Shown piece by piece: positions 1,412 through 51,165 of a stretch of 64,000 nt of DNA. Position 1 is the stretch's first letter. Every line of letters begins with the position of its first letter. Origin of the DNA: Candidatus Gastranaerophilales bacterium. Its GTDB lineage: Bacteria > Cyanobacteriota > Vampirovibrionia > Gastranaerophilales > Gastranaerophilaceae. The notes beneath the pieces are model-generated. The model saw nothing but the letters and a program-made list of their open reading frames with translations. It had not been told where the DNA came from and did not search any database. The position numbers were made by a program, and so were the translations under genes. The stretch spans positions 7,300 to 71,299 of the forward strand of contig CALUSW010000001.1 of the NCBI GenBank assembly GCA_944323535.1, written 5' to 3'.

Positions 1412-2467
1412 ATGACAGAACAAATATGTACAGATGCTGAATTTGAAGCGTTACTTAATAACTATGATTATAGTTTTCAAAAAGGTGATTTGGTCAAAGG
1501 TATAGTTTGTTCTTATGATTCAACCGGAGTTATAGTTGATATAGGGGCAAAAACGGCGGCGTATGTACCTATAAAAGAGGCTGTAGTAGATAAAGACATC
1601 CCTGTGGAAGAGACCCTAAAAAAGAATCATGAATATGAGTTTCTTATAATAAGAGAAGAAGATGAAGACGGAAGATTTATGCTTTCGTATAAAAAAGTTG
1701 CAATGGCATATAACTGGCGAGAATTGGAACAGTTAAAAGCAGAAGATGCGACTGTTGAAGGGGTTATTGTTTCTTCCGTTAAAGGCGGGGTTCTTGTTGA
1801 AGTAAAAGGCGTAAGAGGTTTTGTTCCTTCAAGTCATTTAAAACTAAAATCAACAGAAGATGTTGTAGGAGAAAAACTTGAATTAAAGATTCTTACAATG
1901 GATATACAACAGGGCAACTTTATCCTGTCAAACAGAAAAGTATACTCTGAAGATAAAGAAGAATCTAAAAAAGATTTATTTGATACAATTGAAATAGGTC
2001 AGATTGTAAAAGGTGAAGTTGTAAGGATTACCGATTTTGGTGCGTTTATAGATATCGGCGGTCTGGATGCTCTGTTGCCTCTTTCTCAGATATCCTGGAG
2101 ATGGGTGGATCATCCTTCTGATATTCTAAAAGTCGGCGATGTCGTTAATGTTGAAGTTATTGTAATAGACAAAGATAAGCAGCGAATAAGTTTAAGCTTG
2201 AAAAATCTGGAAAAAGATCCATGGCTTGAAGCTAAAGATAAAATAAAAGACGGGGATAAAATCGAAGGAACAGTTACCAGAATTAAGCATTTTGGAGCTT
2301 TTGTCGAAGTATTTCCCGGTGTTGAAGCTCTGCTTCCGAATAATGAACTTATTGAATATCAAAATCAAAATAATGTCATTTTAAAAGTCGGAGATAAAAT
2401 TCAAACCACCATTATAAAATTTAATCCTGATGACAGAAGAATAAGTTTAAGTATTAAAAATGATTAA
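1412..2467 (+). CDS. rpsA: 30S ribosomal protein S1 (four S1 domains, short cyanobacterial-like form)
   Basis: Repeated S1 OB-fold signatures: GDLVKGIV, VEGVIVSSVKGGVLVEV, GQIVKGEVVRITDFGAFIDI, GDKIEGTVTRIKHFGAFVEV. Confidence 0.9.
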   Translation: MTEQICTDAEFEALLNNYDYSFQKGDLVKGIVCSYDSTGVIVDIGAKTAAYVPIKEAVVDKDIPVEETLKKNHEYEFLIIREEDEDGRFMLSYKKVAMAYNWRELEQLKAEDATVEGVIVSSVKGGVLVEVKGVRGFVPSSHLKLKSTEDVVGEKLELKILTMDIQQGNFILSNRKVYSEDKEESKKDLFDTIEIGQIVKGEVVRITDFGAFIDIGGLDALLPLSQISWRWVDHPSDILKVGDVVNVEVIVIDKDKQRISLSLKNLEKDPWLEAKDKIKDGDKIEGTVTRIKHFGAFVEVFPGVEALLPNNELIEYQNQNNVILKVGDKIQTTIIKFNPDDRRISLSIKND

Positions 2468-2987
2468 AAAAAAGAAAATTATAGTCTTTTCCGGAAAACA
2501 ATTTTCCGGAAAAGATACTGTTGCTAAAATTTTATTGGGAAAGCTAAAAGATTTTAAAAGAATCGGAATTGCCGATGCAATAAAATCGGAGTATTCAGCA
2601 AGAACCGGATTAAGTATTGAAGAAATTGAAAAAAACAAATCAAAATACAGACAGGATTTAATAGATTTGGGAAATTACGGAAGAAATATAAATCCTGATT
2701 ATTGGCTCAATTCTATAATTTCATATCCGGGAAATGTAATTGTAACCGATGTAAGAGTCAAACATGAACTTGATTTATTTAAAAAAAACGGAGCTTTTAC
2801 CGTAAGAGTTGAAGCAAGTGAGGAACAGCGCGCAAAAAGAGGACTTATAACGTCCTCAAATGATAATACGGAAACTGATCTGGATAATATAAAAGATTGG
2901 GATTATATAATTTATAATAACGGTACATATGAAGAGCTTGAAAAAAATACGGAAGAATTGTATACGGTTTTAAAGGAAAGATTATAA
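2460..2987 (+). CDS. P-loop kinase resembling animal-type phosphomevalonate kinase / dNMP kinase family
   Basis: N-terminal IIVFSGKQFSGKDT P-loop variant. Collinear resemblance to my memory of human PMVK: VTDVRVKHELDLF vs VSDTRRVSDIQWF, VRVEASEEQRAKRG vs VRVVALEQSRQQRG, DLDNIKDWDYIIYNNG vs GLDNFGDFDWVIENHG. The start overlaps the rpsA stop by 8 nt (ATGATTAA). Confidence 0.6.
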   Translation: MIKKKKIIVFSGKQFSGKDTVAKILLGKLKDFKRIGIADAIKSEYSARTGLSIEEIEKNKSKYRQDLIDLGNYGRNINPDYWLNSIISYPGNVIVTDVRVKHELDLFKKNGAFTVRVEASEEQRAKRGLITSSNDNTETDLDNIKDWDYIIYNNGTYEELEKNTEELYTVLKERL

Positions 2988-2990
2988 AAA

Positions 2991-3022
2991 AAGAAAAGCT
3001 TATTTGCTTTTCTTTTTATTTT
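2991..3022. terminator. Bidirectional intrinsic terminator
   Basis: AAGAAAAGC (2991-2999) / GCTTTTCTT (3006-3014) hairpin, with an A-run before it and a T-run after it, between convergent ORFs. Confidence 0.6.
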
Positions 3023-3238: not shown

Positions 3239-4162
3239 TCAGTTTTTAAACATTGAACTTGATAAATACCGCATGCCGGTATCGGGTAAAATTACCACAA
3301 TTAATTTATTCTTATTTTCTTCTCTTTTAGAAAGCTCGAGTGCTGCCCAAAGTGCGGCACCTGATGATATTCCGGCGAATATTCCTTCTTTTTTTGTAAG
3401 TTCAAGCGCTGTCTTTATTGCATCTTCATCTGTTACGGGAATTACTTCATCTACTACCGAATTGTCATAATTTCCCGGAATAAAATTTGCACCTATACCC
3501 TGAATCTGGTGAGCTCCGGAATAACCTTTTGTAATAACGGGAGATGAAGCAGGTTCTACCGCTATTGCTTTTATACCCGGGTTTTTTTCTTTCAGTTTTT
3601 TTGCAATGCCTGATATTGTTCCTCCCGTTCCGACACCTGCTACTATAATATCGATTTTCCCGTCTGTATCTGACCAGATTTCTTCTGATGTTATATCATA
3701 GTGTATTTGTTTATTGGCAGGATTATTAAATTGCTGCGGAATGAACGAATTTTTTATTTCATTATTCAGTTCCTGCGCTTTATCAACAGCCCCCTGCATT
3801 CCTTTTGAACCTTCGGTTAATACAAGCTCCGCTCCGTATGCTTTTAAAATATCGCGTCTTTCTTTGCTCATGGTTTCAGGCATGGTGAGTATTAATTTAT
3901 ACCCCTTAATTAATGCGGCAAGAGCAAGCCCTATTCCCGTATTTCCGCTGGTAGGCTCAATAATTACACTCTCTTTAGGTTTTATTAATCCTTTTTTTTC
4001 GGCATCCTCAATCATTGCAAGTGCGGTTCTGTCTTTTATTGAACCTGCAGGATTGAAATATTCGACTTTTACCAATATATCGGCATATCCGTTATTCATT
4101 TTATTTATCTTTACTAAAGGAGTATTTCCTATAAGTTCAAGTATATTTTCATATATTTTCAT
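3239..4162 (-). CDS. cysK: Cysteine synthase (O-acetylserine sulfhydrylase, CysK/CysM family)
   Basis: IGNTPLV, FNPAGSIKDR (PLP lysine motif), AGVGTGGTISG loop. Start moved to ATG 4162: GGAG lies 6 nt upstream and 10 nt after the upstream gene's stop. Confidence 0.9.
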   Translation of the reverse strand: MKIYENILELIGNTPLVKINKMNNGYADILVKVEYFNPAGSIKDRTALAMIEDAEKKGLIKPKESVIIEPTSGNTGIGLALAALIKGYKLILTMPETMSKERRDILKAYGAELVLTEGSKGMQGAVDKAQELNNEIKNSFIPQQFNNPANKQIHYDITSEEIWSDTDGKIDIIVAGVGTGGTISGIAKKLKEKNPGIKAIAVEPASSPVITKGYSGAHQIQGIGANFIPGNYDNSVVDEVIPVTDEDAIKTALELTKKEGIFAGISSGAALWAALELSKREENKNKLIVVILPDTGMRYLSSSMFKN

Positions 4163-4172
4163 ACATTTCTCC

Positions 4173-4880
4173 TTAACCGCATACGGGGCAGTTTTTATTT
4201 CTTTCAAAAGTTATTTTTCTAAATTCTGTTTTTAAAGCATTAAAAGTAAGAATTTGATTTGTTAATACATCACCTTGTCCGATTATTAATTTTAATACTT
4301 CCATAGATTGCAAAGATGCAATCGTCGAAACTACAGGGCTTACAATTCCTTGATTAATATTTTCATTTTCGTCGGCTTCAGGCAATAAACACCTTAAACA
4401 TGCAGTTTTATGCGGAATTACAGTAACAACTTGTCCGCAGAAACCGGATACACCGCCATGTACAAGAACTTTATTTGTTTGTATTGCAATATAATTCAAT
4501 AAAAACTTGGATTTATAACTGTCAAAACAATCTATAATAATATCAAATTCTTCTGAGATTTTTTTGTAATTATTTTTATCAAGATTAATATTAAAGAATT
4601 TGACTGAAATATCCGGATTGTAAGATTTTACCCATTCAAATGCCGATTTGGATTTTGATTTTCCGATGTTTTCAGGAAGGTGAATATATTGTCTGTTAAA
4701 ATTTGACGGTTCTATAATATCTTTATCAATTATTCCAAGAGTACCGATACCTAAAGAAGCAAGATTAACTATAACAGTAGAACCAAGTCCGCCGGCGCCG
4801 GCAACAAGCACTTTCGCCTTTGAAATTTTTTTCTGTGCTTCAAGTCCGAGAAGCTGTATATTTCTTTCATATCTGTTCAT
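4173..4880 (-). CDS. ThiF/MoeB/HesA-type E1-like adenylyltransferase (no rhodanese domain)
   Basis: VLVAGAGGLGS nucleotide loop, NFNRQ, paired zinc motifs CLRC and CPVC, 235 aa. Confidence 0.85.
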   Translation of the reverse strand: MNRYERNIQLLGLEAQKKISKAKVLVAGAGGLGSTVIVNLASLGIGTLGIIDKDIIEPSNFNRQYIHLPENIGKSKSKSAFEWVKSYNPDISVKFFNINLDKNNYKKISEEFDIIIDCFDSYKSKFLLNYIAIQTNKVLVHGGVSGFCGQVVTVIPHKTACLRCLLPEADENENINQGIVSPVVSTIASLQSMEVLKLIIGQGDVLTNQILTFNALKTEFRKITFERNKNCPVCG

Positions 4881-5791
4881 TAGTTTTCTGTAAGTATCTT
4901 ATTTAATTTTTTAACTGTTTTTATATCTTCTTTAGGACTTTTACCTGTAGTTGTCAAATAATTACCGGTTAAAATTCCTTCAATGCAGGTTTTAAGTGCA
5001 AGTTCCTGATTTTCATCGGATAAACGCATTCTTCCGCCGCAAAATCTTAAGATTGATTTGGGATTTGCAATTTTAAACACCGCAAGTGTCCTTAAGATAT
5101 TTTCTTCATCAATTTTATTATGATAATTTTCAAACGGAGTTTTAGCTATAGGCATAAGTATATTTATCGGGACAGAATCGGGTTCGATACTTTTTAATTC
5201 TAAAGCCATTTCTATTCTCTGTTCTACGGTTTCTCCCATTCCTAAAATCACCCCGCAGCATAGCTCCATACCATATTTTTTTACCAGTTTGCAAGTATTT
5301 AAACGATCCTGCCAATTATGGGTTGTACAGATATCTTTATAATAAGATTCAGCCGTATTTATATTATGATGAAATCTTTTTAAACCGTGTTTTGCTAAAA
5401 GTTTTGCCTGCTCTTCGTTTAAAATTCCGATAGAAGCGCAGCTTCGCAATCCTTCGATTTTATTTAATTCATCAATTAATTCAAGAATTTTATCAAAATT
5501 TTCTTCATCCGGAGATTTACCGGAGGTAACAACGGCAAATCTTATTACACCGTTTTCTTTTGCTTCAATAGCGGCTTTGACGGCTTCTTCTTTAGAGATA
5601 AGAGGATATTCCTTAATATCTGTTCTGTAATGAGAACTTTGTGCGCAGTATTTGCAGTTTTGGGAACATTTTCCGCTTCTTGCGTTAACAAGGGAGCAGA
5701 ATTCAATCTTATCCGAAACGAAGCCTGCTGAATAACTCAATAGTTCATCAAACGGCATACTATAGAGTTTTAATAATTGTTCTTTATTCAT
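4880..5791 (-). CDS. bioB: Biotin synthase (radical SAM), variant auxiliary-cluster ligand pattern
   Basis: CSQNCKYCAQSS radical-SAM motif, FHHNINTAESYY (cf. YNHNLDTS), LCCGVILGMGET, DSVPINIL. Confidence 0.85.
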   Translation of the reverse strand: MNKEQLLKLYSMPFDELLSYSAGFVSDKIEFCSLVNARSGKCSQNCKYCAQSSHYRTDIKEYPLISKEEAVKAAIEAKENGVIRFAVVTSGKSPDEENFDKILELIDELNKIEGLRSCASIGILNEEQAKLLAKHGLKRFHHNINTAESYYKDICTTHNWQDRLNTCKLVKKYGMELCCGVILGMGETVEQRIEMALELKSIEPDSVPINILMPIAKTPFENYHNKIDEENILRTLAVFKIANPKSILRFCGGRMRLSDENQELALKTCIEGILTGNYLTTTGKSPKEDIKTVKKLNKILTEN

Positions 5792-6891
5792 AGCACCTCA
5801 TCTATTATGCCTCCTCCCAGTACGGTATCTCCGTCATAAAATACGGCAGACTGCCCTTTTGCAATCGGATTTTGAAGTTCTGAGAAAATAACTTCAATTC
5901 TGCCGTCTTTCAGAGGATTAATTACAGCGTCTTTCGGCTCCTGCGCCGAGCGTATTTTTACACTGCAGTTTAGAGGCTTTTCTAAACTGTCAATTGCACT
6001 TAATATAATATTACTGGCAATAAGTCCTTTGTTTAATGCTTCTTCTTTATATGCCACAACGACTTCATTTGTTTCTTTTCTCAGTTCAATAACATATAAC
6101 GGGGCTGCGGCTGCAACTCCAATACCTTTTCTCTGACCTATCGTAAAGTTCCAAAAACCTTGATGTGTTCCTAAAACTTTTCCTTGCTTATTAACTATAT
6201 TTCCTTGTTTAGGTTCTGCGCAAAGTATGTCGTTATAATCTCCGTTATAAAAATCCTGACTGTCGGGTTTATCCGCAACTTCAAGATTATATTTTCTTGC
6301 AATTTCTCTTATTTGCTCTTTTGTATATTCTCCAAGAGGCATTATGGTTTTACCCAACTGTTCCTGCGTTAATCCGTAGAGGAAATATGACTGGTCTTTT
6401 TTGGTGTTAATTCCTTTCTTTAAAAGATATCTTCCGTTTTCATGAACAATTTTTGCATAATGACCGGTTGCAAATTTGTCAAATTCAATACCATGTTGTT
6501 TTGCAAGAAGCGGAAATACATTAAATTTTATAAAACGATTGCAATGTACACAGGGATTTGGCGTTCGTCCCTGCATATATTCTTCTTTAAAATAATTTAT
6601 AACACTTTTTTCATACTCTTTTGAACAATCAATTATATGAAAATCTATACCTAATTTTTCCGCAACTTTTTGGGCATGTTCAATTTCTTTTGTTTTATCT
6701 GGGGTTAAACAAGCGCAATGTGTTGTATCTTTTTGATTGTTGTTTCTGATTTTATCTTTAAGATTTTGAAAAACCGGACCATCGCCCCACAAAGACATAA
6801 TGGCGCCTGTAACATCATATCCCTTTTGTTTTAAAAGAAGTGCTGCAACAGAAGAATCAACTCCGCCGGACATTCCAACCAATACTCTCAT
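5788..6891 (-). CDS. mnmA: tRNA 2-thiouridine(34) synthase MnmA-like, variant cysteine pattern
   Basis: PP-loop GMSGGVDSS, GRTPNPCVHCNRFIKF, ATGHY, KDQSYFLY, GQRKGIG, C-terminal GQSAVFYDG...LGGGII. Confidence 0.85.
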   Translation of the reverse strand: MRVLVGMSGGVDSSVAALLLKQKGYDVTGAIMSLWGDGPVFQNLKDKIRNNNQKDTTHCACLTPDKTKEIEHAQKVAEKLGIDFHIIDCSKEYEKSVINYFKEEYMQGRTPNPCVHCNRFIKFNVFPLLAKQHGIEFDKFATGHYAKIVHENGRYLLKKGINTKKDQSYFLYGLTQEQLGKTIMPLGEYTKEQIREIARKYNLEVADKPDSQDFYNGDYNDILCAEPKQGNIVNKQGKVLGTHQGFWNFTIGQRKGIGVAAAAPLYVIELRKETNEVVVAYKEEALNKGLIASNIILSAIDSLEKPLNCSVKIRSAQEPKDAVINPLKDGRIEVIFSELQNPIAKGQSAVFYDGDTVLGGGIIDEVL

Positions 6892-7092
6892 TTATCCGCC
6901 GCCTACAAACTTGACTATCTCTATTTTATCACCTTCATGAAGTATCGTACTTTCATATTCGGATTTAGGTATAATTTTTAGATTTCTCTCAACTGCAAAC
7001 ATTGTTGTGTTAATATTTTGCATTTTAACAACATCCAATACAGTAGTATTTTCATCAGTCTGTAAATTTTTTCCGTTGACAATTATTTCCAT
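6892..7092 (-). CDS. thiS: ThiS/MoaD-family ubiquitin-like sulfur carrier protein
   Basis: 66 aa ending in ...EIVKFVGGG, a free Gly-Gly C-terminus. It abuts the mnmA start with 0 nt spacing. Confidence 0.8.
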   Translation of the reverse strand: MEIIVNGKNLQTDENTTVLDVVKMQNINTTMFAVERNLKIIPKSEYESTILHEGDKIEIVKFVGGG

Positions 7093-7201
7093 ACTTTTAT
7101 TATATATCTAAATATTCTAAAACAAAGCGGTCTTAAAAAATTGAAAATATTTTCAAAAATGATTGTTTAACATATAATAAAGTTCAAAAGAAAGGTGAAA
7201 T

Positions 7202-8428
7202 ATGATTATTCCGAGTATTGATTTAATGGACGGAAAAGCGGTACAGCTAAAACAGGGAAAAGAAAAAGTTCTTGAAAAAGAAAATGTACTCGAGCTTGCA
7301 AAATATTATTCCCGTTTCGGAGAGATAAGCGTTATTGATTTAGATGCGGCAATGAATAAGGGAAATAATGAAGCTTTAATAAAAGAGATATGTAAGATTG
7401 CCCATTGCAGAGTCGGCGGCGGAATAAGAGATATTGATAAAGCCAGAAGAATACTTGCGAACGGAGCAAAACAAATCATTATAGGTACTGCCGCTAATGA
7501 GGAATTTTTATCAAAGCTGCCTAAAGAAAGAGTAATAGTAGCAATCGATTCAAAGCAGGGTAAAATAACCGTTGAAGGCTGGACGACTCAGGTTAACGCT
7601 TCGCCGGAAGAATATGTTAAGCGTTTTGATAATTTTTGCGCGGGATATCTGTATACCATAGTTGATAAAGAAGGCATGATGCAGGGGACGGATATTGAAG
7701 CGATAAAAAAAATACGTGCATTAACCAATAAAACTTTGATTGCTGCAGGCGGTATTTCTTCTGTTGATGAAATTAAAACACTTGTTAAAATGAACGTATC
7801 AACCCAGCTCGGTATGTGTATTTATACAGGTGCCGTTAAACTTGAAGATGCGTATACAGCCGTTTTGGATTTTGATAAACAGAACGGATTAATACCTACA
7901 ATCGTTCAGGATGTTGATACAAAACAGGTTTTAATGCTGGCATATTCAAATAAAGAGTCTTTAAAAAAATCTCTTACTGACGGACTTGCAACATATTGGA
8001 GCCGTTCAAGAAAAGAATTATGGACAAAGGGTCTGACATCAGGAAATACGCAGGAATTAATCAGTTCTAAATTTGACTGCGATCAGGATACTTTATTGTT
8101 TAAGGTTAAGCAAAAAGGTAATGCCTGCCATACCGGAAGATATTCCTGCTTTGAAGATAAGGATTTTTGTATAAATGAGCTTTATAATCTTTTATTGGAC
8201 AGAAAAGCCAAAATGCCTGAGAATTCCTATACTACAAAATTGTTTAAAGATGAATTTAAGCTGCAGCGAAAAATAATGGAAGAAGCTTTCGAATCGGTTA
8301 ATTTTGAAAAAGGAGACGGGCTTGAATGGGAAGCAAGCGATTTAACATATCATATGCTTACATTTATGGTATTGCATAATGTCACACCGCAGGATATTCT
8401 GAATAATCTGGCTTCACGCACAAAATAG
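7202..8428 (+). CDS. Tri-domain histidine biosynthesis fusion: HisA-like isomerase + HisI cyclohydrolase + HisE pyrophosphatase
   Basis: aa 1-222 are HisA-like (MIIPSIDLMDGKAVQLKQG, VGGGIRD, AAGGISS). aa 226-318 are HisI (FDCDQDTLLFKVKQKGNACHTGRYSCF). aa 323-408 are HisE-like (LYNLLLDRK...KIMEEAFE...EASDLTYHMLTFM). Confidence 0.85.
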   Translation: MIIPSIDLMDGKAVQLKQGKEKVLEKENVLELAKYYSRFGEISVIDLDAAMNKGNNEALIKEICKIAHCRVGGGIRDIDKARRILANGAKQIIIGTAANEEFLSKLPKERVIVAIDSKQGKITVEGWTTQVNASPEEYVKRFDNFCAGYLYTIVDKEGMMQGTDIEAIKKIRALTNKTLIAAGGISSVDEIKTLVKMNVSTQLGMCIYTGAVKLEDAYTAVLDFDKQNGLIPTIVQDVDTKQVLMLAYSNKESLKKSLTDGLATYWSRSRKELWTKGLTSGNTQELISSKFDCDQDTLLFKVKQKGNACHTGRYSCFEDKDFCINELYNLLLDRKAKMPENSYTTKLFKDEFKLQRKIMEEAFESVNFEKGDGLEWEASDLTYHMLTFMVLHNVTPQDILNNLASRTK

Positions 8429-8436
8429 GTAAAATT

Positions 8437-9681
8437 ATGAAAATATGTAACTACAATGAGATTACGGAAGAATTTTTTTCAAAAATTGAATTTGAAAATA
8501 TAGATTCCGTTAAAGCAATTATAAAAGATGTGAGAGAAAATAAAGACAGTGCAATTAAAAAATATTGCAGAGAATTTGACGGAGAAATAATAGACAAATT
8601 TAAGCTGACACGCGAAGAAATTGAACATGCAATAAATTCAACGGATTCCAAAACAATTGATGCGATAAAATTTGCAATAAAGAATGTTGAAGATTTTGCT
8701 AAAGCACAGTTAAACAGCATAAAAGAACTTGAAGTTAACATAAACGGAAATATTCTCGGTCATAAGATTATTCCGCTGGATTCTGTCGGCTGCTATATTC
8801 CGGGCGGAAATTATCCGTTGCCTTCAAGTGCTGTAATGACAATTGTACCTGCAAAGGTAGCAGGGGTTAAAAGAATTTCAGCGGCTTCTCCTAAAATAAA
8901 ACCGGTAACTATTGCAGCCGCTGCCTTAGCCGGAGCTGATGAGATATACAGAATCGGGGGCGTTCAGGCAATAGCCGCTTTTGCATACGGGACCGAAACA
9001 GTTAAAAAAACAGATAAAATAGTCGGACCCGGTAATAAATTTGTAACTTCCGCAAAAAAACAAGTATTCGGGGAATGCGGAATAGATTTTCTGGCAGGAC
9101 CGTCAGAAGTACTTATAATAGCCGATGATAATGCCAATCCGGATTTTGTGGCAGCCGATATGCTTGCGCAATGTGAACACGATAAAGAGGCAAGAGCATT
9201 TCTTCTTTGTTATTCAAAAACATTTGCTCAAACGGTAAAAGAAAAGGCTATTAAATATCTGGAAACTTTAAAAACAAAAGAAATAGCAAAAGTATCTTTT
9301 GAAAAATCTTTTGCGGTAATTGTAAATTCTTTTGATGAAGCTGTTGAATTATCGAATAAAAAAGCTCCCGAACATCTTGAACTTTGTTTGGAAAATGCCG
9401 CTCAATATATTGACAGATTTAAAAACTACGGCTCGCTTTTTATAGGCAGTTATTCGGCAGAAGTATTCGGAGATTACGTTTCAGGTACTAATCATACGCT
9501 TCCGACAAATCAGGTATCAAGATATTCAGGCGGGTTAAGTGTTTTTGACTTTATAAAAATACAGACATATCAAATAATAAACAAGAACTCGATACAAGAA
9601 ACGGCAAAAAATGCTTCGATTCTTGCAGAGGAGGAAGGTTTATTTGCACATAAACTCGCTGCCGATATACGGGTAATGTAA
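8437..9681 (+). CDS. hisD: Histidinol dehydrogenase
   Basis: YIPGGNYPLPSS, QCEHD, APEHLEL, GDYVSGTNHTLPT. Confidence 0.95.
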   Translation: MKICNYNEITEEFFSKIEFENIDSVKAIIKDVRENKDSAIKKYCREFDGEIIDKFKLTREEIEHAINSTDSKTIDAIKFAIKNVEDFAKAQLNSIKELEVNINGNILGHKIIPLDSVGCYIPGGNYPLPSSAVMTIVPAKVAGVKRISAASPKIKPVTIAAAALAGADEIYRIGGVQAIAAFAYGTETVKKTDKIVGPGNKFVTSAKKQVFGECGIDFLAGPSEVLIIADDNANPDFVAADMLAQCEHDKEARAFLLCYSKTFAQTVKEKAIKYLETLKTKEIAKVSFEKSFAVIVNSFDEAVELSNKKAPEHLELCLENAAQYIDRFKNYGSLFIGSYSAEVFGDYVSGTNHTLPTNQVSRYSGGLSVFDFIKIQTYQIINKNSIQETAKNASILAEEEGLFAHKLAADIRVM

Positions 9682-9719
9682 TATTGAAGTCTGCTTTCAG
9701 ATAACTAATATAAAATAAT

Positions 9720-9893
9720 CTGGTATCGCAACTTACTGCCGGCTATCTTGTGATTTTGCGATAAATGGTGTTTCATGCGGGTGTCTTCCACCCGCCCTCC
9801 ATCCTCTGTAAAAATTCAGCTTATTGTCTCTATCAAGTTCTTATCAGCTTGGCTGTTCGCAATCCGCTTATTGTGAATTTTTTTCTCGGACAT
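9720..9893. repeat. Composite intergenic element: two inverted-orientation copies of the AAAATTTCACGATAAGCCGG-like motif flanking a GC-rich hairpin
   Basis: 9738-9758 and 9864-9893 both resemble the motif at 41381-41400 and 62042-62061 when reverse-complemented. 9754-9766 (TTTTGCGATAAAT) is identical to 62019-62031. 9720-9729 (CTGGTATCGC) is identical to 29629-29638. The hairpin GCGGGTG/CACCCGC lies at 9777-9795. Confidence 0.5.
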
Positions 9894-10130
9894 ACTTTTT
9901 TAATAATTTCTACTGTTTCTAGAATATAATTAATTAGTGTACAAATTGATTTTGTAAATCTTTATTTAGATTAAATCTTCTTTTTAAGATTTTAAATGCG
10001 ATTTGTGTTAAATTTGTAATGTAAAAAAGAGATTAAAAAAAATACTTTGGCGTTTAAATTTTTATATTTCGCAAGGTGTGGTTAATCCCTAATCAGTTTA
10101 TCGATTTAGAGTCAAGGAGATTATTAAATT

Positions 10131-49537: not shown

Positions 49538-51001
49538 TTATATTTCAGGTTCTTCTTCTTCAACAATGACATCTTCAAATGGATTTTCTTCACAGGATGT
49601 GTCTTCAGGAATATCAGGAGATGAATCTGTTGGCTGATCGGGTGAAGGCTCTGTAGTTGAAGTTGTCGGATCAGGTTCAACCGATGGAGTTGGTTCTGAT
49701 GTTGGTGAAGGTTCAACAGGATCTGTTGTCGGTTCATTTGTTGGGGTAAATGTCGGTTCAACAGGAGGAATATCTTCTGCACCGTCTGTTGGTTCTAAAG
49801 TTGGCATTGTTGTTGGTGTTGTATCAACAGTGGGTTCATCCGGAGTTGTGTCAACAGTCGGAGTTGTATCAATTGTTGGTTCGTCCGGTGTTGTGTCAAC
49901 AGTCGGTGTTGTATCAATCGTGGGTTCATCCGGAGTTGTATCAACAGTCGGGGTCGTATCAATCGTGGGTTCATCCGGAGTTGTGTCAACAGTCGGGGTT
50001 GTATCAACAGTGGGTTCATCCGGAGTTGTATCAACAGTCGGGGTTGTATCAACAGTGGGTTCATCCGGAGTTGTGTCAACAGTCGGGGTTGTATCAACAG
50101 TGGGTTCATCCGGAGTTGTGTCAACAGTTGGTGTTGTATCAACAGTGGGTTCATCCGGAGTTGTATCAACAGTCGGGGTTGTATCTACCGTGGGCTCACA
50201 TTCACATTCTCTTGTGTATTCAAAATCGGGAAGAATTATTTTATCGCCGGTATATAAAACTGCATTATGTCTCCCTGTCCCGCCGACTTCCGTTCTCCAG
50301 CCGCCATCTTCTGTTCCGTATATGTCAGGGTTAGCATCCATTACGGCTTTTTCAAGTGCATAGTATTCATCACTGTACATTTCTATACCCATTGCATCAA
50401 GATCATAGCTGTTTGAAATAATTCTCGTTAAACAGTTATTGACATCATTATCCTCTGCCGGATTTACCCAGGTCTCAACGTTAACATATTTATTTCCGTC
50501 ATCATCGACTTTAATTCTATCATCATCCTGAAAAACAGCTGATACAGTTTCCATTGTACCATCCTGACAACCGCAGTCACAATCTGACGGACAACCACAT
50601 GTAGGTTCTGTCGACTCGGTTTCATCTGACAATGATTCTATGAAGGCTTTTATATCTTCACTTTCTATTGCATTACCGTCGCCATGCATAAAAGATAAAT
50701 ATTCAAGTTCGTCTCCGGATAATGATTCATCTCCGTCCAGCTGGCTTAAAACGTCATATATTAAACCTAATTCTTCTTTTGTATAAGGATTATCGGCATC
50801 TGAGTCATATAGCGTATTTACGAAACCATTACGATTCATAAGTGTTTCGTTATATCCGTCATCTGTTTCATTATTCCAGATAGATGTATTGTTAACGGTT
50901 TTATTTTCATCTGAATTCTCAAATGTATTTTTTGCTTCATTTAACAATGAAGGATCAACATTCTTTAATATTTCAGCTTTTGAGTTTAAACTAAAATCCA
51001 T
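49538..51001 (-). CDS. Highly acidic Thr/Pro/Asp-rich protein with 15-aa tandem repeats and a LysM-like segment; no signal peptide seen
   Basis: Start at ATG 51001 (AGGAG 8 nt upstream). The N-terminal half has DGDESLSGDELEYL (Ca-binding-like), a CGCPSDCDCGC cluster and LYTGDKIILP (LysM-like end), then (PTVDTTPTVDTTPDE)x8.5 and a P/T/E-rich tail. Confidence 0.7.
   Translation of the reverse strand: MDFSLNSKAEILKNVDPSLLNEAKNTFENSDENKTVNNTSIWNNETDDGYNETLMNRNGFVNTLYDSDADNPYTKEELGLIYDVLSQLDGDESLSGDELEYLSFMHGDGNAIESEDIKAFIESLSDETESTEPTCGCPSDCDCGCQDGTMETVSAVFQDDDRIKVDDDGNKYVNVETWVNPAEDNDVNNCLTRIISNSYDLDAMGIEMYSDEYYALEKAVMDANPDIYGTEDGGWRTEVGGTGRHNAVLYTGDKIILPDFEYTRECECEPTVDTTPTVDTTPDEPTVDTTPTVDTTPDEPTVDTTPTVDTTPDEPTVDTTPTVDTTPDEPTVDTTPTVDTTPDEPTIDTTPTVDTTPDEPTIDTTPTVDTTPDEPTIDTTPTVDTTPDEPTVDTTPTTMPTLEPTDGAEDIPPVEPTFTPTNEPTTDPVEPSPTSEPTPSVEPDPTTSTTEPSPDQPTDSSPDIPEDTSCEENPFEDVIVEEEEPEI
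49808..50194. repeat. In-frame tandem repeat, 45-bp unit x about 8.5, near-identical copies
   Basis: Directly visible periodicity; units differ only by a few substitutions (for example PTVD vs PTID). Confidence 0.95.
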
Positions 51002-51165
51002 ACATAACACTCCTATTTTATATCTATAATTCTTTTTTATCGGCAATCAATTTATAATCTTTAATAAAAATATTTTTCTTGTTAAGATTTGTAAAATATA
51101 AATTATTTTTTATCAATCCGAAAATGTCTTTCAACTTCTATAAAAATGTAAGAAGGTAGGTATTT

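Follow-up and report, generated by a model that had tools for sequence, protein, structure and literature searches.

The five-gene locus and its products

A 64,000-nucleotide stretch of DNA from a Candidatus Gastranaerophilales bacterium (contig CALUSW010000001.1; G+C about 32%), referred to here as the window, was analyzed with respect to a minus-strand run of five genes: thiS, mnmA, bioB, a gene for a ThiF/MoeB-type E1 enzyme, and cysK. The host belongs to the Gastranaerophilales, poorly known non-photosynthetic gut Cyanobacteria (Vampirovibrionia/Melainabacteria) noted for biotin synthesis. The run opens with thiS (6892-7092), encoding a ThiS-family ubiquitin-like sulfur carrier of 66 amino acids (aa) that ends in KFVGGG before a TAA stop. 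It is followed by mnmA (5788-6891; 367 aa), a tRNA 2-thiouridine(34) synthase homologue, by bioB (4880-5791; 303 aa), a biotin synthase resembling the Type II enzymes of anaerobes, and by the E1 gene (4173-4880; 235 aa), a ThiF/MoeB/HesA-like adenylyltransferase. The last gene, cysK (3239-4162; 307 aa), encodes an O-acetylserine sulfhydrylase A-type cysteine synthase. Its start was picked from the sequence as the ATG at 4162, which follows GGAG; the mechanical open reading frame (ORF) extends back to a TTG at 4207.

The junctions were read from the reverse strand. The thiS stop directly abuts the mnmA start codon (GGCGGCGGATAA followed by ATG; 0 nucleotides, nt), mnmA and bioB overlap by 4 nt (ATGA within CTATGA), and bioB and the E1 gene overlap by 1 nt (TAATG). 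The E1 gene and cysK are separated by a 10-nt gap (TAAGGAGAAATGTATG, i.e., TAA-GGAGAAATGT-ATG) that holds the GGAG ribosome-binding site. A preliminary description of this DNA had reported this packing, a free VGGG end of the carrier, and an E1 with two CxxC motifs and no rhodanese domain, and all three were borne out by the ORFs, the reverse-strand reading and the domain assignments. The five genes are best explained as one operon for moving and inserting sulfur. Tight junctions as a remarkable feature by themselves were rejected, being ordinary operon packing; the feature that exceeds chance is that distant relatives have the arrangement too, not the packing itself.

The family membership of each product was tested against profile models. 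ThiS scored 75.5 bits with TIGR01683 (cut-off 37.45) and 48.4 bits with PF02597 (22.5). Its GGG terminus is free and needs no processing, and the orthologues at related loci (numbered with the prefix L: L001, L002, L008, L081, L086, L088, L090, L092 and L094) likewise end in GGG. When homologues of the 66-aa ThiS were sought by word index, only five proteins came back, none of them a ThiS-MnmA fusion. As a control, a ThiS 44% identical to that of the window was found to sit in a textbook thiS-thiF-thiG-thiH-thiE cluster. The E1 carries PF00899 (228.7 bits) as its sole Pfam domain, a GAGGLG nucleotide loop and two zinc-type CxxC motifs (ACLRCL and NCPVCG), and Pfam detected no C-terminal rhodanese domain of the MoeZ/Uba4 type in the 235-aa protein. 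It fell below all NCBIfam equivalog cut-offs (MoeB NF006444, 207 versus 449; UbaA, 198 versus 450; ThiF TIGR02356, 182 versus 275), and 1292 homologues were found at E<=1e-20. CysK passed TIGR01139 (434.5 bits versus a cut-off of 350.95) and fell short of both CysM-type models (TIGR01138, 324.1 versus 394.2; NF008735, 312 versus 413).

Among the ORFs of the 64-kb window, no thiG, thiH, thiC, thiE, moaE, class-V aminotransferase/cysteine desulfurase or JAMM gene was recognized, the ten flanking ORFs being searched with Pfam and the others by eye, in agreement with the preliminary description. Nor was a thiamin context for ThiS (thiG with thiH/thiO, thiE) found at related loci, and about 15 of these, when inspected, contained no thiamin or molybdopterin gene. 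A JAMM/JAB protease was likewise absent from the window flanks (Pfam) and from the Pfam lists of related loci.

MnmA was assigned to its family with 391.2 bits for NF001138 (cut-off 284) and 346 for TIGR00420 (237). It shows the HUP, PRC-barrel and beta-barrel architecture (PF03054, PF20259 and PF20258), a PP-loop MSGGVDSS at residues 7-14, and a CxxC of the Fe-S type in NPCVHCN. The TtuA model gave 20 bits versus a cut-off of 450, indicating that the protein does not belong to the TtuA/Ncs6/NcsA family. When MnmA was aligned to 2DER/9HLN, the third cysteine (E. coli C199, T. thermophilus C200) was absent, the C199 column being a gap versus 2DER. The loop reads DSQDFY in place of the DS(Q/T)(E/G)ICF of the E. 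coli, B. subtilis and canonical C-type enzymes. In a motif table drawn over 80 relatives, a cysteine in the C199 column was found in 0 of 58 sequences of the window's MnmA clade versus 23 of 23 canonical Omnitrophota MnmAs. The invariant cysteines of the 58-sequence clade are C61, C114 and C117, and the loop Asp is also invariant. Judged by these motifs, the DSQDFY MnmA fits into neither of the two published classes, C-type (CC-CxxC-C) and D-type (C-DxxC-C), and the invariant Asp of the loop might stand in for the third cysteine. In E. coli MnmA, the residue missing here carries the persulfide or ligates the cluster. The classical persulfide hand-off from IscS/Tus or YrvO to that residue is therefore excluded. 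Members of the DSQDFY clade are the window protein and those of L001-L057, L081, L086, L088, L090 and L094; the clade spans Gastranaerophilales, Bacteroidales, Victivallales, Kiritimatiellia, gut Alphaproteobacteria metagenome-assembled genomes (MAGs) and a Holdemanella-labelled bin.

BioB scored 362.8 bits with TIGR00433 (cut-off 225) and has the radical-SAM (S-adenosylmethionine) motif CxxxCxxC as CSQNCKYC. Assignment as ThiH, HydE, LipS or PylB was rejected, since those models gave at most 61 bits versus 363 for BioB. Among solved structures, two biotin synthase entries, 8VDW (4.8e-79) and 8VCW, were the best relatives, and E. coli 1R30 ranked behind them. Under the criteria of PMC10813225, the alignment showed the Type II signatures Cys at boBioB C52, His161 and Ser140. 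At the E. coli C97 position there is Ala (RFAVVTSG), not Ser, which is the uncharacterised 'Type A' motif of PMC10813225, and extra cysteines lie in ELCCG and FCGGR. From these residues the window BioB appears Type II-like (4Fe-5S class). For Type II BioB, the origin of the sulfide bound to the cluster was stated as unknown, and a helper gene was sought by neighbourhood, co-transfer and co-expression, with none found (PMC10813225).

Two BioB paralogue families were observed in Vampirovibrionia, each of them found adjoining mnmA (observation drawn from L011, L037, L081, L088 and L090). In family 1, to which the window protein belongs, the E. coli C97 position is Ala and the His161 signature and the extra cysteines are present; in family 2 the boBioB C52 and E. 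coli C97 positions are both Cys, and the His161 position is Asn. At L011, a BioB of each family stands on either side of mnmA, at 6948-7886 (-) and 9091-10020 (+).

Conservation of the thiS-mnmA-E1 neighbourhood

For a neighbourhood analysis anchored on MnmA, every ORF of 80 MnmA loci was searched with the five window proteins. The closest loci among species-representative genomes came from Candidatus Gastranaerophilales MAGs, with MnmA identities of 65-84%. Among the 31 Gastranaerophilales-type loci, the full thiS-mnmA-bioB-E1-cysK order was present in two (L001 and L002), and thiS-mnmA-bioB-E1 without cysK in one (L008). Three loci had mnmA-bioB with a cysK-like gene on the opposite strand, eight had mnmA-bioB alone, and eight had mnmA without bioB, two of these last being cut at the contig end. 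The conserved core was mnmA then bioB, seen in 23 of 29 informative loci and mostly without thiS and E1. At these mnmA loci, thiS and E1 appear and vanish together. At more distant MnmA loci (<=56% identity, other phyla), mnmA stands by itself.

The neighbourhoods of 11 sampled E1 homologues, 54-68% identical to the window E1, were also compared. Five of them lie in thiS-mnmA-E1 clusters. L086 has thiS-mnmA-bioB-E1-cysK, with order and his flank as in the window, and L081 has thiS-mnmA-E1-bioB-cysK, an order that differs from the window. In L088 a Cys_Met_Meta_PP enzyme (MetY-like) is inserted between mnmA and E1, and bioB is convergent and adjacent. L090 shows CBS, cystathionine-lyase-like and M28 peptidase genes, then thiS-mnmA-E1, with bioB about 850 bp off on the other strand. 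L094 has thiS-mnmA-E1 and nothing further. A GG-ended carrier, an E1 and a PP-loop thiolase are encoded together in the window and nine further loci. Where both are clustered, thiS is invariably directly upstream of mnmA, including at one thiS-mnmA-E1 locus that lacks bioB. The gap between them is 0 nt in seven cases (window, L001, L002, L081, L086, L088 and L092), and a short spacer is present in L008, L090 and L094. The exact 0-nt junction pattern was found in one short JGI metagenome contig (L092), too few for statistics.

L081, L088, L090 and L094 were placed by MnmA similarity and low G+C. In a neighbor-joining tree of MnmA, the loci bearing thiS and E1 split over two deep Vampirovibrionia clades, with MnmA down to about 55% identity with the window, and L004 and L045, which lack thiS and E1, were nested among them. 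The two deep clades and the nested losses indicate that the thiS-mnmA-E1 arrangement is therefore old and was repeatedly lost or relocated.

Further observations were made around these clusters. L089 and L095 are syntenic with L088 (glutathione synthetase-like, E1, cupin, MFS, arginase, spermidine synthase and AdoMet decarboxylase genes) and hold only E1 at the site where L088 has thiS-mnmA-metY-like before E1 and bioB after it; by gene order, this looks like a clean block gain or loss. A few kb upstream of its cluster, L088 (1-809) encodes a large pyridine-nucleotide disulfide reductase that carries rhodanese, TusA and DrsE domains as fusions, and at a similar distance L086 (965-1390) encodes a single-domain rhodanese. 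With these two proteins as phmmer queries, no rhodanese or TusA-like partner was found in the window. The gene just upstream of thiS, which overlaps the thiS start, encodes an M28 zinc aminopeptidase in L090 (5580-6898) and a GDSL lipase-like protein in L081 (6058-6880), neither of which is JAMM.

A candidate thiocarboxylate route to MnmA and its alternatives

The comparative genomics points to a route in which ThiS and E1 would supply MnmA with sulfur as a ThiS thiocarboxylate (ThiS-COSH), and this is the only kind of evidence on which we assign it a probability of roughly 0.55. A link from ThiS/E1 to MnmA is favored because thiS-mnmA-E1 recurs despite shuffled order and differing accessory genes, and because thiS is constantly directly upstream of mnmA. 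It is also favored because MnmA has the CxxC yet no persulfide-accepting cysteine, and because the active site of C-type MnmA, which works with a [4Fe-4S] cluster and sulfide, was modelled as TtuA-like (PMC7025502; PMC8053098), TtuA being the enzyme that accepts TtuB-COSH (PMC7025502; PMC8053098). The absence of thiamin and molybdopterin genes from the window and related loci argues in the same direction. The reported biosynthetic products of Gastranaerophilales are riboflavin, nicotinamide, biotin, folate and pantoate, a list without thiamin (PMC4040986), and this omission likewise favors the link. Two further points count in favor of the reading, namely that the BioB class here has a sulfide donor stated as unknown (PMC10813225), and that ThiF, ThiS, CysK, MnmA and BioB co-occur around Thi4 in ThiG-less phyla.

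What the genes encode, how their junctions are built, which motifs their products carry and how far the thiS-mnmA-E1 neighbourhood is conserved are observations; each transfer of sulfur that follows is what we infer. E1 would use ATP to adenylate the C-terminal glycine of ThiS, and the acyl-adenylate would be converted to ThiS-COSH by free sulfide, which is plentiful in the gut, or alternatively by a persulfide made elsewhere from cysteine supplied by CysK. MnmA would then receive the sulfur of ThiS-COSH, most plausibly at the free iron of a [4Fe-4S] cluster, a mode of delivery already proposed for TtuB-COSH and TtuA. MnmA would adenylate U34 of tRNA-Lys/Glu/Gln and exchange the adenylate for sulfur, probably via a cluster-held sulfide. 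In a less supported step, ThiS may in addition restore the fifth sulfide to the auxiliary cluster of the Type II-like BioB. The fuller version, in which one ThiS-COSH pool, generated from ATP and sulfide by the E1 that has no rhodanese domain, is the physiological source of a 'fifth sulfide' on the open iron of [4Fe-4S] clusters in two unrelated enzymes, the cysteine-depleted MnmA and the Type II-like BioB, we consider doubtful. The preliminary description had proposed such a pool for s2U34 formation and/or BioB; its MnmA part gained support from the recurrence of thiS-mnmA-E1, and its BioB part is weaker, with bioB found mostly where thiS and E1 are missing.

Several results weigh against the thiocarboxylate route. 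The distribution is patchy, as thiS and E1 were found at mnmA in only 3 of 31 representative Gastranaerophilales loci, and mnmA-bioB-cysK without thiS or E1 in nine of the 31. In the conservation test suggested in the preliminary description, thiS-mnmA-E1 held in two deep clades and the five-gene set did not. DSQDFY MnmAs occur without thiS/E1 within 8 kb in Bacteroidales, Kiritimatiellia, Victivallales and gut Alphaproteobacteria MAGs. Five of the 11 sampled E1 homologues are solitary, and another is found only in a thiS-E1 pair among glycosyltransferase genes (L083-85). Thiocarboxylate use by an MnmA-family enzyme is without biochemical precedent, reviews giving persulfide or sulfide. Moreover, the analysis covered loci, and thiG, thi4, moaE or a cysteine desulfurase may be present elsewhere in the genome.

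The main alternative is that the five genes share only regulation by demand for sulfur or cysteine, without any hand-off. The client of ThiS and E1 would then lie elsewhere (ThiG/ThiH, Thi4 or MoaE), and MnmA and BioB would use sulfide or a desulfurase. That most relatives dispense with thiS and E1 at the mnmA locus is as expected from it, as are the thiS-E1 pairs and solitary E1 genes found away from mnmA, and the carrier clears the ThiS equivalog cut-off and shares 44% identity with the ThiS of a canonical thiamin cluster. C-type MnmA and Type II BioB both function in vitro on plain sulfide, and in the Thi4 study, the client suggested for ThiS in ThiG-less genomes is Thi4. Co-regulation leaves unexplained, however, why the juxtaposition of thiS and mnmA, often at 0 nt, outlasted several independent rearrangements in lineages with MnmAs about 55% identical to that of the window. 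It also has to meet the lack of thiamin and molybdopterin genes at the roughly 15 inspected loci and the place of thiamin synthesis outside the reported Gastranaerophilales capacities (PMC4040986), and we regard it as possible, on the unlikely side.

A CysO-CysM or HcyS-MetY style of amino-acid synthesis, in which ThiS-COSH feeds the adjacent pyridoxal phosphate (PLP) enzyme and MnmA and BioB are bystanders consuming the product, appears quite improbable. Neighbourhoods of ThiS, E1 and cysteine synthase are a known class (PMC1779556), and CysK is present in the window, L001, L002, L081 and L086, with the MetY-like enzyme between mnmA and E1 in L088 and CBS plus a cystathionine lyase-like protein upstream in L090. 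However, the JAMM/JAB protease required to release the amino acid is absent from the window flanks and the lists for related loci, and the window enzyme passes the CysK cut-off and fails that for CysM. The PLP enzyme is missing from L008 and L094 and switches family between loci where mnmA is constant, and the nine loci noted above hold cysK beside mnmA-bioB without thiS or E1. The CysO-like role for CysK raised in the preliminary description therefore found no support, the enzyme being of CysK and not CysM type, with no JAMM/JAB protease and a variable or absent PLP enzyme. TtuB and the archaeal SAMPs are sulfur carriers that are also conjugated to proteins. The free GG terminus and the zinc CxxC motifs of the E1 would suit a ubiquitin-like conjugation system that tags MnmA, BioB or other proteins and donates no sulfur. 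This is very unlikely, given that an E2, an E3 and a deconjugating JAB protease are absent from all loci (window flanks and lists for related loci), that the carrier is a 66-aa ThiS equivalog, and that all linked enzymes insert or assimilate sulfur.

The candidate ThiS/E1-MnmA route was compared with known sulfur systems. It resembles TtuB-TtuC-TtuA (Thermus thermophilus s2T54), Urm1-Uba4-Ncs6/Ncs2 (eukaryotic cytosol) and SAMP2-UbaA-NcsA (archaea) in having a GG-ended carrier of the ThiS/MoaD fold, an E1-like adenylyltransferase, a PP-loop ATP-dependent tRNA uridine 2-thiolase, probably with a [4Fe-4S] cluster and a free iron site, and a carrier gene that adjoins the thiolase gene. Unlike those systems, the thiolase here is of the MnmA family (three Pfam domains, NF001138), with the proposed function coming from gene context alone, and the E1 differs from Uba4 in lacking a rhodanese domain. 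With IscS-TusABCDE-MnmA (E. coli) and YrvO-MnmA (Bacillus subtilis), the locus shares the family of the end enzyme, the expected s2U34 on tRNA-Lys/Glu/Gln and a neighbourhood link to cysteine metabolism; it lacks Tus, IscS and YrvO genes, however, and its MnmA has no E. coli C199 equivalent and has CxxC instead of DxxC. The C-type [4Fe-4S] MnmA of Thermus thermophilus is alike in its CxxC and in belonging to an anaerobic or ancient lineage, Cyanobacteria being among the listed C-type holders (PMC7025502). The window clade departs from that class (CC-CxxC-C, PMC7025502) in having one Cys of the CC pair and no third Cys.

The BioB retains, like the Type II enzymes of Blautia obeum and Veillonella parvula (PMC10813225), the C52-position Cys, His161, Ser140 and the Arg, in an obligate-anaerobe host. 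It differs from them in having Ala, not Ser, at E. coli C97 and extra cysteines, and in its gene lying in an operon with thiS and E1, whereas no helper gene was found for Type II BioB (PMC10813225). CysO-MoeZ-CysM-Mec (M. tuberculosis) and HcyS-HcyF-MetY-HcyD (Wolinella) likewise place a ThiS-like carrier and an E1 beside a PLP enzyme of sulfur amino-acid metabolism, but the window has no JAMM protease, a CysK-type enzyme and a rhodanese-less E1, and its PLP enzyme is an accessory that varies among relatives. The ThiS-ThiF-ThiG-ThiH-ThiE cluster shares a ThiS equivalog carrier, an E1 and a BATS-domain radical-SAM enzyme. In the window ThiG, ThiH and ThiE are lacking, the BATS radical-SAM enzyme is BioB, and the E1 is a MoeB-like protein of 235 aa with zinc motifs, versus 210 aa for the ThiF of the thiamin cluster.

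In the literature, the only report found with MnmA, ThiF and BioB as neighbours was a study of the Thi4 thiazole synthase, in which ThiF, ThiS, CysK, MnmA and BioB recur around Thi4 in other, ThiG-less phyla, and MnmA and BioB are treated generically as users of relayed sulfur. MnmA/TrmU, PP-loop enzymes and biotin synthase all go unmentioned in a large survey of the gene neighbourhoods of ubiquitin-like proteins in prokaryotes (PMC1779556). The sulfur donors given for MnmA in reviews and primary papers are persulfide (IscS/Tus, YrvO, IscS/SufS) or sulfide, thiocarboxylates being reserved for TtuA/Ncs6/NcsA. The statement of the preliminary description that MnmA is not described as a client of such carriers agrees with the searched literature. 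The comparison suggests that the novelty is carrier-dependent tRNA thiolation with an MnmA-family enzyme, of which prior notice was partial and concerned gene co-occurrence only.

If the thiocarboxylate route is true, it would be a third sulfur route for the MnmA family and would unite MnmA with TtuA and Ncs6. It bears on how Fe-S-type MnmA obtains sulfur in organisms without Tus proteins. A pool shared by MnmA and BioB, if true, would name the missing sulfur supplier for multiple turnovers of anaerobic biotin synthases, and the sulfide-donor gap limits the use of Type II BioB in biotin production. Both sulfur-supply questions are directly testable with the compact five-gene set. If the link is regulatory only, the locus is still a lineage-specific 'sulfur insertion' operon with a widespread MnmA variant that lacks the canonical third cysteine.

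Flanking features and other genes

According to Pfam searches of the ten flanking ORFs, the operon is bordered on one side by genes for a sigma-70 factor, an S1 protein and a small kinase, and on the other by hisD and a hisA-hisIE fusion. The divergent intergenic region between thiS and hisA-hisIE (7093-7201) is 109 nt long, and the promoter is presumably located here. No Rfam family reached the gathering threshold in the whole window, and nothing relevant to a riboswitch was found at E<=1 in 6850-7450. A promoter scan gave consensus-level matches only, rarer than in shuffles, and no promoter is claimed.

The terminator scan showed a terminator-like palindromic hairpin at 2988-3017, with a 12-bp stem and A-rich and T-rich flanks. 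It sits between cysK and the convergent kinase gene, about 220 nt downstream of cysK, and may end both the cysK-side and the kinase transcripts; its use by the operon is what we infer. The kinase gene (2460-2987, plus strand) encodes a 175-aa P-loop kinase with Pfam matches to phosphomevalonate kinase and deoxynucleotide-monophosphate kinase, and the first 8 nt of the gene are shared with the end of the S1-protein gene.

The his gene at 7202-8428 (plus strand), divergent from thiS and with hisD next to it, encodes a 408-aa fusion of His_biosynth (HisA/HisF-like), PRA-CH (HisI) and PRA-PH (HisE). A fusion of these three domains is also present in L086. Further along the window, a minus-strand gene at 49538-51046 encodes a 502-aa protein with about ten tandem Thr/Pro/Asp-rich units (TPTVDTTPDEPTVDT...) and Cys-rich stretches, which is probably a repeat protein, secreted or on the surface.

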